Source of the DNA: Escherichia coli
GTDB lineage: Bacteria; Pseudomonadota; Gammaproteobacteria; Enterobacterales; Enterobacteriaceae
DNA: 64,000 bases
Strand: one strand, 5' to 3'
Assembly (NCBI RefSeq): GCF_048403405.1
Contig: NZ_CP183129.1
Shown in pieces: positions 32,658-38,600 of the stretch (its first letter is position 1; each line of letters begins with the position of its first letter). The position numbers are program-made.

Positions 32658-35600
32658 TTATTTATTGGTGAGTACTACGTTCCATGGGTAAGCGTGCAGC
32701 AAAAACCGTATTGACAGGGATGTGTTATTCAGTCGGCAGTGCTACGCGCCAGGGGAGCAGTTCGCCGACCCGGTTTATCGGCCAGTCGGCTATGACGTCA
32801 AGGACATAGCGGAGGTAGCTTTCTGGCTCCACTCCGTTCAGTTTGCACGTCCCGATCAGGCTGTACAGCAGCGCTCCCCGCTCTCCTCCATGATCCGAAC
32901 CGAAGAACAGGTAGTTTTTGCGGCCCAGACTGACCATCCGCAACGCATTTTCAGCGATGTTATTGTCCGCCTCAGCCCAGCCATCATCTGCATAGTACGT
33001 CAGCGCCGGCCACTGGTTCAGGGCGTATGCGAACGCTTTCGCCAGTTCTGAGTGTCGCGACAGGGTTTTCATCTTTTCACGCAGCCAGCTTTCCAGGGAT
33101 TTCAGCAGCGGTTTCGTTTTCAACTGACGTTCGGCAAGCCGCTGCTCCGCCGTCATTCCCCTTATCTCTGCCTCGATGGCGTACAGTTCGCCGATCCGTT
33201 TCAGCGCTTCCTCCGTCAGGGCTGACGGGGTGCGAACGTGCACATCGTGGATTTTACGGCGGGCGTGAGCCCAACAGGCGGCTTCCGTTATCCGGCCATC
33301 CCGGTACAGCTCGTTGAACCCGGCGTATGCATCCGCCTGCAGTACACCACTGAACCCCGCAAGATGGGTCTGCGGATGGATGCCTTTTCTGTCCGGGCTG
33401 TAAGCGAACCACACCGCCGGCGCCAGCGTTGACCCGGCGTTACGGTCGTCACGAACGTAGGTCCATAACCGCCCGGTCTTCGTTTTCTTATTGCCTGGCA
33501 ACAGCACCGGGACAGGCGTGTCATCAGCATGGAGCTTACCGTCAGTCAGCACATAGCCATGAAGCGCCTCTTCCAGCGGAGACAGCTGCCGGCAGCATGC
33601 ATCCACCCAGCCCGACAGCAGTGAACGGCTCAGCTCCACACCTTGCCGGCCGTATATTTCTGACTGGCGATACAGCGGGGTGTGCTCTGCATACTTCGAG
33701 GTCAGCACGCGGGCCAGCAGCCCCGGTCCGGCGATACCCCGCTCGATGGGCCGTGAAGGCGCGGGGGCCTGCACGATGGCATCGCACTGAGTACAGGCAT
33801 GCTTTTCACGTACCGTCCGGATAACCCGGAAGGCGCTGCGCATCAGCTCCAGCTGTTAGGCGGCATCCTCACCCAGATAGCTCAGCGAGCCTCCACATTC
33901 CGGGCAGCATGACGCTGCCGGCAGCAGCCGTTTTTCATCGCGGGGGAGTGATTCGGGGAACGGTTTGCGGGTGCGGGTTTGACGCAGCGGGCGCTGCACG
34001 GCCGGGTCGTCAACCCGACCGGTAAGGGTATCACTTTCTTTCTGAAGTGCCTTCAGGTCAGCTTCCATCTGTGCGATACGACGGGAGACTTTTTCGGAGC
34101 AGCTGCCGACGTTCATCCGGCGCAGCTTATCCAGCTGTGCCTGCAGATGGTCTATTTCGCGTTCACGCTCGTTCAGCTTTTCCAGCAGGGCACGGTTCAG
34201 CGCCTCCTGTTCGGCAAGGAGACGTTTCAGTGCATTGATATCGTCAGGAAGTGAGCTGCTCATACCGGGTATATTACCAGGCTCATTCAGCGTCGACCAG
34301 GATAAAGAGGCTTACAACATAGTCAGGGACGTAAGCAGTCTTTTAGGCTGCCGCCAGTCGATACCTTCCAGCAGCATCGCCAGCTGTGCCGGTGTGAGGA
34401 ACACTTTGCCATCCCGGGCTGACGGCCAGGCGAAGCGGCCGCGCTCCAGCCGTTTGGTCAGCAGACACAGTCCATCGCCGGTAGACCAGAGGAGCTTTAC
34501 CTGACTGCCATTACGCCCACGGAAGATAAAAACGTGACCTGACATCGGATCGTCTTTCAGCGTCGTCTGCACCTTTGCCGCCAGGCCGTTGAAGCCGTTT
34601 CTCATATCGGTGATGCCAGCGACCAGCCAGATCTTTGTCCCTGATGGTAATGGGATCAACGTTTGAGCTCCCGTATCAGCAGGTTCAGGATATTTTCGCT
34701 GATGGCACCATTCAGACGGAGTGATCCGTGCCGGAACGTCACTTCACAGCTGATATTGAGTGATTCAGGTGTCGCAGCAGCTACAGGTTGTGACCGGGGG
34801 GAGGTTGTAGGGACAACATCTTCGGCATCAAGTGTTATCGGGAGCAGCTCAGGCACGTTGTTTTCTGTTGTTGAAGGAGGACGTAGTTTTCCTTCGCGCC
34901 AGTACTGGCGCCACTTGAACAGCAAATTATCGTTGATCCCATGCTCACGAGCGAGTTGCGCTACGGAGATCTCTGGTCGATGCGAGAGTTCAACCATTTT
35001 GATTTTGAACTCAACGGGATAATTAGGGCTTTTTTTACGCACTGCGGTTAATGATTTCATGGATAGCGTCCACCATATTTGGTGTCCACTATTCTTTCAG
35101 GAATTTCAGGATCTGCCAGACGGTGCTGAGACGACGCTTACGAATCAGCACGGGGCTGACAACTGGAAAATCCTGCCGGGTGTACCGTTGTATGACACGA
35201 TTGTTATCGTCACTGGTGAGAGTGTGCGCAGGGATTATATGTCGGTATATGGCTATCCCGTGCCAACCACACCGTGGCTGAATACTGCTCCCGGTTTATT
35301 TATTGACGGCTATACATCGGCAGCAGCCAGTACTGTGCCTTCCCTGAGCCGGACACTGATTTATGACTATGAGCAGAACCCTGATTCCGGCAACAACGTG
35401 GTGGCGCTGGCAGCAAAAGCAGGATACAGCACATGGTGGATATCCAATCAGGGAAAACTGGGAGAGCATGACACACGCATCTCTGTTATTGCTTCTGATG
35501 CGGAGCATACCGTTTTCCTCAAGAAAGGCAGCTTCGCTTCCCGTAAAACGGATGACATGTTGTTGTTACAGGAAACAGAACGTGCACTGGCGGATAAATC

Positions 35601-38600
35601 CTCTCCGAAGGTGATTTTCCTGCACATGATTGGCTCTCATCCGAATCCGTGTGACCGGCTTAACTCCTGGCCGAATCATTACCTGGGGCAGTATCCCCGA
35701 AAAATTGCCTGTTACCTCGCCAGCATCAGTAAACTGGATAACTTTCTCGGTCAGCTTGATGGTATCCTTCGCCGGCATTCCCGTCATTTCGCCATGCTTT
35801 ACTTTTCTGACTATGGGATGTCGGTCAGCGATAGTGCTAATCCTGTTCATCATGATGGCCATATACAAGGAGGCTACAGCGTTCCCCTGATTATTACCGC
35901 CAGTGACATCACGTCTCATCAGTCCGTCAGCAGAAAAATCAGTGCCCGTCATTTCGCAGGTATTTTTCAGTGGCTGACCGGCATTCGTACTGAAAATATA
36001 CCGCCATTCAATCTGCTGACAGACGAAGATAATGAACCCGTTATGGTTTTTAACGGAGAGAGGAATGTACTGGCAGACAGTCTGAAACCACAGCCTCTGA
36101 TTCTTCCGGTCAGGGGAAAATAAGCGTAATGTTCATCACCAGATTATGTACGATGAGTTTTCCACTGTTTATAGCAATTATCTTGCTAATAACCAGACAG
36201 GAGTAACCAGACCAACCGAAAACACCGGGAAGGTGATTACCCGCTAGCAGAGGAAATCCGGTTTTTTTTGATGTCAGCCATAACGTGTTTGACAATAAAG
36301 CATCATGAAAGGGTGTTAATGAGTCCATGGGATAATTCATAAAAATAATTTACTGTGTTATCCTTTTCAAAAGAAATATTCAGAAGATACCCCCTGGCTG
36401 ACAACCAGGGGAAGGGGGCATTAACAGTGTTATTATTGGTGGATAAATTATTACTTGTGTGCAGGATACACTAATGCAATATCTACTGATACTGTATGCC
36501 AGTATGTTTCATGCCTGCCGCTGAAAACGGCAATATCCAGGGCCAGACATATTCACCATTCATATTTCTGCATTTCTGTACAATTTTCTCAGAAAGCGTC
36601 TCATCAATTCTTTCACGCAACTTCTCCTGCTGTCTTAAAATACTTTCGCATATTTCGAAATCATCTTCCTGCATCAGCATTTCGGCGCATTTAATGATTT
36701 CTGCCCGTTCATGCAGCACAGAGGAATGATTATAGAGCCAGTTTACAAACAGCAATGCTTCCGGATATTGCCCCCATAACGGGTGGTATGTGGCATAATA
36801 ATCTTCGGCAGTATCCGGACCGCCTGAAAAGTTATGCCATACAGCAAGTGGAAATGGATGCAGATTTCCGCACAGTATTTCTGCGATGTAAGTATTTGCC
36901 GCAAAGCCGCGACGAAATGCAGTTGCAGCTTTTACCAGTTCCCCATTAAGAAAATGCAGAAGGCCGAGTTCATACCAGTAAGGTGAAAATTCATCTGCAT
37001 GTTCCTGCAGTATATGGCGTGCCTGTTCATGAGCGCCAGTGCGTAACAGTTCCGGTCCCAGTAGCCAGCGTGCACCATGATTATCTTCGGGATTGTAATC
37101 CAGTATTTTTTCAATGAGCATGATGGCATCCTGATGACGCTGTAAATGTGCATTTGCCAGGATTGCCGCATAGAGGGCACGAAGAAAAGGTCGGTTGTCA
37201 GGATGTATCCAGATGATTCTGCCACTGAAACCTTCAGGGATAAGACGATTGCCAACTGCCAGCCCTTTAAGGGCTGCATTCAGCGCCTTACGCGGGGCAT
37301 TCTGCTCCAGAAATACGTATGCCAGGTAAGCGTGTACATCAATAAAGTCATTCTCCTGTCGGGCAAGGCGCCTGAGTTTGTTGATGTAACTTGTTTCGCT
37401 GATTTCATCCGCATCGTATGCATCAATCAGTTCTTCAAACTCATCCAGCAACGAGCCAAACCAGGTTTCCGGAAATATGAAACAGCCCTGGTTATCGTTC
37501 ACTGCAAAGCGTAATTTGCCAGTCATATTCTGAACCTGTAAAAAAGGATGGACCATAACCTGCAGGCTATAAAAATTGTGATGCCTGGCATCGGTGTCCT
37601 TTTATTGTCCGGGATTAACGTTGCCCATGATAATACAGTGAATTCTGTTCTGTGGTAAGACGTTGAGTTATTGAATGAGAACCTCAGCCTGGCTGATGGT
37701 TCCGCCGGCATAAAAAAGAAATTGATTGAGGCGGGTGCTCTTCCCCTTAAGAGGAAGAGCATGTGTGTAAATGGCGTTCAGTCACCTTTTTAGTGGATTG
37801 TTAACTTTTGCATATTCAAACGGACTGATACACTCCTCCCTGTTTGCATCCAGAAAATCTGCCCACCATTGCAGTATAAGCCGACGTTCTTCCAGATGTT
37901 CTGCTTTATGAATATACGCGGCACGTACTCCGTTGCGCTCCTGATGACTCATCTGACGTTCAACCGCATCTCTTGACCATAAGCCGGATTCAATCAATGC
38001 ACTGCACGCCATCGCCCGGAATCCATGGCCACAGACTTCCTTGGTTGTGTCATACCCCATCACTCTGAGGGCCTTATTTACGGTATTTTCACTGATTGGT
38101 TTACGTGGGTCGTGTGCTCCCGTAAAGATCAGACCATTTTCACCTGCCCATGTCTGAAGTTCTGCCAGTATGGCTACAGCCTGTTGGCTGAGTGGCACAA
38201 GATGTGGTGTTCGCATCTTGGAGCCCCGGTGTGAGAATTTTACGCCTGGCAGAGGTTTGCGTTCGGCTGGAATAGTCCACATGGCATTGTCAATATCAAT
38301 TTCAGACCAGCGGGCATATCTGAGTTCACTGGAGCGAATAAAAACCAGTAAATTCAGCATAACAGCAAGCCGGGTGACAGGCTGACCTTTATAACTGTTA
38401 ATACGCGACAGAAGTTCAGGCAGACGTGAAAGATCAAGAGCGGGGCGATGCTGTCGTTTTACAGAGGTCAATGCGCCAGCCATATCCAGAGCAGGATTAT
38501 ATCTGATGATGCCAGACTGTACGGCATAACGCATTACAGCAGATATTCTTTGCTGCAGACGACTGGCGATTTCATAAATTTGTTTAGCTTCTGCAGCACG

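Follow-up and report, generated by a model that had tools for sequence, protein, structure and literature searches.

In the stretch of Escherichia coli DNA analysed here, 64,000 nucleotides of contig NZ_CP183129.1 (hereafter the window), positions 35142 to 36123 very probably hold the remains, no longer functional, of a yjgX-type phosphoethanolamine transferase gene that was lost in two steps through ISEc22, an insertion sequence (IS) of the IS66 family, and then decayed. The feature itself is a known one: RefSeq already labels it as a partial pseudogene ('incomplete; missing N-terminus') in CFT073 among other genomes. An earlier note on this DNA had presented it as the catalytic domain of an envelope-modification gene, orphaned by IS-mediated truncation. 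In E. coli islands linked to tRNA-Phe, the intact gene normally has its place two genes from the integrase. The first step, which can be read directly in strain AF14, was the insertion of ISEc22 into codon 174 of the 500-codon gene, with duplication of the target GAATCAGC. In a second step, the outcome of which is visible in the window, a rearrangement with one end fixed at the left end of the IS removed the 5′ 521 nt of the gene together with whatever lay upstream, and joined ISEc22 to a 60-bp ISEc23-type end in an IS3 fragment, downstream of the orhKR-hly genes; adjacent deletion by the transposase may have been its mechanism, or else recombination of one IS copy with another. Remnant and IS finally decayed, as seen in the His to Tyr replacement in the SDHG motif, in the transposase nonsense codon E136* and in lesions proper to sister lineages. 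The remnant occupies the following interval:

35142..36123, + strand: 3′ remnant of a yjgX-type phosphoethanolamine transferase gene, pseudogene (nucleotides 522-1503 of the intact gene, codons 175-500 plus the stop)

The intact gene used as reference was the 1503-nt allele of strain 20KM2228, which encodes the 500-residue protein WP_001347203.1 in a pheU island (locus L002:4480-5982). Nucleotide homology to this allele starts exactly at 35142, which corresponds to its nucleotide 522 and is the first base after the right end of ISEc22 (the IS ends ...GACGACGCTTAC at 35141), and it reaches the stop codon. The two sequences are 97.1% identical in nucleotides and 96.6% in amino acids, the remnant representing residues 175-500, that is, the last 326 codons (35143-36120). 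Sulfatase (PF00884) is the sole Pfam match of the remnant open reading frame (ORF; E=3.5e-34, residues 47-300 of 354), and in the intact protein this domain, at 193-446, is preceded by EptA_B_N (PF08019) at 44-145 (23.7 bits, cut-off 22.3). Hydrophobic 19-residue windows of the intact protein all lie within residues 6-154 and form about five segments. Both the EptA_B_N membrane domain and these five segments are missing from the window copy. The break at codon 174 lies past the fifth hydrophobic segment, in the linker that leads to the catalytic domain, and, therefore, the window retains the catalytic domain only. Thus, the earlier note was right that the frame takes over at the IS66 right end, that it encodes nothing but the sulfatase-like domain, and that the membrane anchor, which the intact allele carries 5′ of the break, was lost through the IS.

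The open frame of the window is longer than the remnant. It runs intact from 35059 to 36123 on the + strand (354 codons, by ORF listing and by sequence), and 5′ of the junction the frame continues for 40 codons of IS sequence until a stop at 35020-35022. No hydrophobic or membrane segment was found in this 40-codon extension within the IS, so that the truncation claim withstands the search for an upstream in-frame start with a membrane domain. Nor is the junction an assembly artefact, because the same 240-bp sequence across it is present in 107 genomes of the panel used for all megablast and junction counts, which comprised 5,426 complete E. coli genomes. The sequence 35142-36123 was found by megablast in 2,937 of them, always with the annotation 'phosphoethanolamine transferase'. 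At least 80% of the 3′ part of the gene is carried by 2,431 genomes and at least 80% of the 5′ part by 1,525, a gap of about 900 which indicates that degraded copies are common.

Where is the missing 5′ half? Neither the 5′ 521 nt nor the upstream genes of the intact locus were found in the window by blastn or tblastn. For the genome-wide search, at megablast sensitivity, the query was a chimera of the 5′ 521 nt and the single-copy gene orhK, so that CFT073-type genomes rank first. With this query, the 5′ segment was absent from the chromosomes of GN02323, CFT073 (five assemblies), ATCC 25922 (several assemblies) and M16807, each of which was hit at one place and by the orhK part alone. Therefore, within the sensitivity of megablast, the 5′ segment has been deleted from these chromosomes and not relocated. 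GN02323 is the sole genome of the panel that matches 100% of a 24-kb stretch of the window. The absence of the 5′ segment is thus common to the window and to its closest complete relatives.

How the domain came to be orphaned can be followed at the IS and at its left flank, where these features are found:

32378..32627, - strand: IS3-family transposase gene fragment, cut by the ISEc23-type relic (93.6% to the AF14 IS3 element, L005:7209-7453)
32628..32687, + strand: terminal relic of an ISEc23/IS682-type IS66-family element, 60 bp, abutting the ISEc22 left end (100% identical to the ISEc23 end, L006:3201-3260)
32688..35141, - strand: ISEc22, IS66 family, 2454 bp, with GTAAGCG... terminal repeats at both ends (Pfam, inspection of the ends, RefSeq name)
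32725-34263, - strand: tnpC, interrupted by a stop (LZ_Tnp_IS66, DDE_Tnp_IS66, DDE_Tnp_IS66_C; ORF and Pfam)
33856..33858, - strand: nonsense codon E136* in the ISEc22 transposase (GAA in the AF14 copy; 'internal stop' in RefSeq)
34312-34659, - strand: tnpB (TnpB_IS66; ORF and Pfam)
34656-35060, - strand: tnpA (HTH_Tnp_1; ORF and Pfam)
35142..35149, + strand: GAATCAGC, right-hand copy of the 8-bp target-site duplication, the left-hand copy being absent in the window (comparison with AF14)

The element at 32688-35141, whose name was taken from the RefSeq annotation, has the three genes and the GTAAGCG repeats of an ISEc22-type member of the IS66 family, and the 8-bp duplication is seen in AF14. 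IS66-family elements generate 8-bp target duplications. In the window, the flanks of ISEc22 are unlike, with TTCCATGG on the left against GAATCAGC on the right and no duplication, and therefore its present state is not that of a simple insertion. The original state of the same insertion event is kept in the blood isolate AF14, where the pheV island reads, in order, 5′ part of the gene, GAATCAGC, ISEc22, GAATCAGC, 3′ part, TPR gene, integrase and tRNA-Phe. Thus, in AF14 a perfect 8-bp duplication of GAATCAGC surrounds the IS and the 5′ half of the gene still adjoins it; the alignment between window and AF14 spans exactly from the IS left end at 32688 to the tRNA. The duplication is missing in the window because of a later rearrangement. 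Indeed, the place expected for the 5′ half of the gene is occupied by the ISEc23-type relic, followed leftwards by the IS3 fragment, which lies after the sensor kinase and response regulator genes and is listed in RefSeq as 'integrase core domain-containing protein, incomplete'.

These configurations recur across the panel. The right junction, between ISEc22 and the 3′ part of the gene, is present in 107 genomes. A synthetic query for the simple insertion (last 121 nt of the 5′ part of the gene, GAATCAGC and the ISEc22 left end) was matched in full by 23 genomes and the window-type left junction was found in 48; three of the 36 remaining right-junction genomes were opened, and all are papX-proximal. 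In this third left context, exemplified by 118UI, 2017C-4173W12 and Ecol_316, papX and an IS66 relic abut ISEc22. The query for the papX-side junction also matches other contexts (98 genomes) and cannot be used to count the papX-proximal form. In consequence, the IS-mediated truncation put forward in the earlier note stands in that the anchor was lost via the IS, but not in that the insertion by itself would have orphaned the domain, since the 5′ half adjoins the element in 23 genomes.

The third configuration equals the window minus 17246-32867, a segment that carries hlyCABD, c3566-c3568 and orhKR. It fits the product expected from recombination between the full ISEc22 copy at 32688 and a second, partial one located beside papX:

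17066..17245, + strand: second, partial ISEc22 copy (first 180 bp, left end), adjoining papX; direct repeat of 32688-32867

Having given rise to both window-type and papX-type contexts, the ISEc22 left end is therefore a site of repeated rearrangement. As a separate observation, recombination across the direct repeat 17066-17245/32688-32867 seems to offer an easy way of losing the hemolysin segment. The surroundings of the partial copy (16820-18078) consist of nested IS66-family debris beside papX: a relic with 87.8% similarity to the left end of ISEc22 is separated by a 65-bp spacer from the 180-bp copy, after which comes a different IS66-type element, 82% similar to ISEc22, without the 3′ part of its transposase gene.

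What has been left by these events shows signs of decay, both in the remnant and in the IS. A substitution changes the active-site motif of the remnant:

35812..35814, + strand: TAT (Tyr) for CAT (His) in the SDHG motif (CAT in the intact allele, K-12 and AF14)

The His of this motif, whose counterpart in the alignment with EptC and MCR-1 is that of DHGE, is presumably a zinc ligand; here and below, the metal-ligand and nucleophile roles are those of the published MCR-1 and EptA structures. Of the active-site residues, the window copy keeps the GES Glu, the AAST Thr and the Asp, and the complete catalytic set (Glu, Thr and the Asp-His pair) is broken in the remnant, its His being Tyr. The C to T change at 35812 is limited to the rearranged lineage (the window, M16807, CFT073 and 118UI), and C is found in AF14, the intact allele and K-12; because M16807, CFT073 and 118UI share the T and AF14 does not, it arose after the insertion. 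Sister copies bear lesions of their own: an 11-bp deletion with frameshift in AF14 (L005:16584-17560), loss of the stop codon in CFT073 (L004:9121-10130) and a Trp to stop change (G to A) in 118UI at the position equivalent to 35669 of the window. Such independent lesions in sister lineages form a pattern of neutral decay. The ISEc22 copy of the window differs from that of AF14, whose 512-residue transposase is intact, at 10 positions, and because of E136* it is itself defective.

Signals for expression were looked for upstream of the remnant. A simple consensus scan, which is a weak tool for promoters and terminators alike, gave no promoter-like site on the + strand in 34700-35142, and no Shine-Dalgarno-like sequence was seen on inspection before the ATG at 35059. 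Since it has no membrane or export segment, no promoter-like site, no visible ribosome-binding site and no conserved His, we infer that the remnant is inactive and does nothing.

Several observations nevertheless weigh against this account. The 326-codon frame past the junction is still open in the window, the ATG at 35059 inside the IS extends it, and the sequence is compatible with translation of a soluble fragment, which may occur; the promoter scan did no more than match a simple consensus. The relative timing of the three configurations is drawn from a handful of loci and not from a phylogeny. Besides, either mechanism may hold for the second step; the reciprocal junction expected from a second ISEc22 copy inside ISEc23 was found in none of the 5,426 genomes, which makes the two-copy route less likely.

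Could the gene be simply interrupted, with its 5′ half directly across ISEc22, so that precise excision might restore it? This state exists in 23 other genomes, AF14 being an example, but for the window it is refuted, and we consider it almost certainly wrong: the left flank consists of an ISEc23-type end and an IS3 fragment without the duplicated GAATCAGC, and the 5′ 521 nt are absent both from the window and from the closest complete genomes. Alternatively, expression might start at the ATG at 35059 and yield a soluble cytoplasmic protein, the orphan domain with 28 IS-encoded residues fused to it, which has kept or gained a function. The 354-codon frame is indeed intact and the active-site Glu, Thr and Asp are conserved. 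Yet neither a promoter-like site on the + strand upstream nor a Shine-Dalgarno-like sequence before 35059 was seen, a signal or membrane segment is lacking, the SDHG His is replaced by Tyr, and the sister copies carry a nonsense codon (118UI), the 11-bp frameshift (AF14) or a lost stop (CFT073). Moreover, EptA and MCR-1 need their membrane domain for activity in cells. Taken together, these points make such a function very unlikely. Of similarly low probability, and considered jointly, are two bolder proposals: that read-through across the dead IS and translation from the ATG at 35059 yield a cytoplasmic sulfatase-fold protein with a new or regulatory role, and that the repeated inactivation of yjgX-type genes, of which inactivated copies were seen in K-12, AF14, the CFT073 type and the 118UI type, reflects selection against envelope modification in extraintestinal E. 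coli instead of neutral decay.

The remaining alternative concerns only the mechanism of the second step. The ISEc22 in the gene may have undergone homologous recombination with a second copy inserted 60 bp into ISEc23, with deletion of the DNA between them, which is a real though tentative possibility. Flanks of 8 bp that fail to match are a textbook sign of recombination between IS copies, other ISEc22 pieces occur in the island (17066-17245), and the third configuration fits recombination between two ISEc22 left ends. However, this route predicts a reciprocal junction, and a synthetic query for it (ISEc22 right end, TTCCATGG and the continuation of ISEc23) matched 0 of the 5,426 genomes, by which the two-copy route is weakened; intramolecular transposition of the IS left end would yield the same product. 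By either route, two-step loss through ISEc22 followed by decay is the history that we prefer for the remnant.

To which transferases did the intact gene belong? By its architecture it is placed in the phosphoethanolamine-transferase superfamily, and by nucleotide identity in the yjgX group. When judged by the domain pair of the family (PF08019 and PF00884), the remnant has the C-terminal sulfatase-type domain and not the N-terminal EptA_B_N. It aligns to EptC (PDB 5zzu) at E=1.4e-17 and to MCR-1 at about 5e-4, and over the part for the catalytic domain it is 91.9% identical in nucleotides to K-12 yjgX (b4575), with which it also shares the location next to an integrase and a tRNA gene. The best NCBIfam match is the CptA subfamily model NF007933, whose cut-off of 404 bits is far above the 99.9 of the fragment and the 109.8 of the intact allele; the EptA, EptB and MCR models score weakly, far under their curated cut-offs, for both sequences. 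An identity as EptA, EptB, CptA or MCR equivalog was therefore rejected, every score being far below the cut-off. Orthology to YhbX (b3173) was likewise discarded, amino acid identity being 32% over 247 residues of the catalytic domain only and the N-termini failing to align. Thus, at 32% identity to YhbX and below the EptA cut-off, the gene is of the yjgX type and is not YhbX or EptA, for whose family the earlier note had proposed an alignment.

By family resemblance, the intact protein would have a five-helix anchor with its catalytic domain in the periplasm, where the Thr nucleophile and a bound metal would serve to move phosphoethanolamine from phosphatidylethanolamine onto an envelope acceptor. 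Likewise, the description as an envelope-modification gene goes by analogy with the family, the envelope role of the YjgX-type transferase being a putative one. No functional study of YjgX or yjgX was found in the literature searched. In strain engineering, the gene has served as a neutral site for integration, and a defensin screen returned a K-12 ΔyjgX mutant that proved to be a false positive (PMC4808223). Putative YjgX/YhbX-type transferases have been described at all analysed pheU, pheV and selC insertions (PMC6174562).

The island that surrounds the remnant is a pheV island of the CFT073 type, with pap genes, papX, IS66 debris, IS600, hlyDBAC, c3568-c3566 and a response regulator/kinase pair, and it continues with the IS cluster, the remnant, the TPR gene and the integrase. 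The pair corresponds to OrhR and OrhK (c3565/c3564), characterised elsewhere (PMC8550376). The integrase-proximal end contains:

36483..37556, - strand: TPR-repeat protein gene, between the transferase gene and the integrase in pheV/pheU islands
37782..39047, - strand: island tyrosine recombinase (integrase; Arm-DNA-bind_3, Phage_int_M, Phage_integrase)
39245..39295, - strand: 3′ portion of tRNA-Phe (pheV), 51 nt, island boundary or attachment repeat, where the CFT073-type match ends

The match to CFT073 and M16807 stops at 39295, inside tRNA-Phe; ARAGORN called no tRNA in the window, which has just the 51-nt 3′ part. Beyond it, 39357-64000 is an SPI-7-type integrative element (ParA, dnaB-PI, ParB, an STY4528-family protein and topoisomerase III) and, therefore, two islands stand in tandem at pheV, as in GN02323. 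In all pheV and pheU islands examined the TPR gene separates the transferase gene from the integrase, and with the yjgX-type gene it seems to form a conserved module close to the integrase. A 76-residue ORF (36110-36340, - strand) has 14 nt in common with the 3′ end of the remnant; it corresponds to the RefSeq hypothetical protein WP_071526271.1 of several genomes, with no domain evidence. In the left part of the island, the cytochrome-b-type gene equivalent to c3566 (29384-29982, - strand) is split into the overlapping ORFs 29587-29982 and 29384-29698, and RefSeq flags the equivalent gene as frameshifted in CFT073, M16807 and GN02323. Oxidative-stress phenotypes have been reported for Δc3566 (PMC8550376) despite this flag.

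Within the mosaic pheV pathogenicity island of the CFT073 type, the remnant is just one among many scraps of IS-generated debris and on its own has little importance. However, the invariant junction between ISEc22 and the gene, together with its three left contexts, records the order in which the island was rearranged. One of these rearrangements was apparently the loss of the hly-orhKR segment, 15.6 kb, between two left ends of ISEc22. As a lineage marker, this junction could help to recognise ST73-like strains. A 'phosphoethanolamine transferase' match in genomes of this kind should not be taken for a determinant of polymyxin resistance or envelope modification.

The closest counterparts of the remnant are C_RS16895 of CFT073 and its equivalents in ATCC 25922, M16807 and GN02323, which represent the same locus with the same ISEc22 junction at the same position of the pheV island; as in the window, the remnant of CFT073-type islands lies between ISEc22 and the TPR gene and integrase. 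The M16807 copy is 100% identical over 982 nt, whereas that of CFT073 differs by a few extra substitutions, loss of the stop codon included. GN02323, the best match, has a second, SPI-7-type island in tandem at pheV. The K-12 yjgX gene resembles the remnant in being degraded, in adjoining an island integrase (near intB) and in having IS elements alongside, but it is situated at the leuX site, it has suffered a frameshift, internal stops and the loss of its first ~313 nt, and its neighbours are IS2 and IS4 instead of ISEc22. The allele encoding WP_001347203.1 in 20KM2228 is followed, like the window remnant, by a TPR protein gene, an integrase and tRNA-Phe; unlike the remnant, it is full length, with 500 residues, five hydrophobic segments, EptA_B_N and His in SDHG. 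EptC/CptA, EptA and MCR-1 (PDB 5zzu, 5grr and others) share the catalytic domain, with the GES, Thr and DHG motifs aligned, and the intact allele has the same two-domain architecture as these proteins, though sequence similarity to them is distant. YhbX, a putative membrane hydrolase or transferase of the sulfatase type, belongs to the same superfamily but to a different orthologous group.

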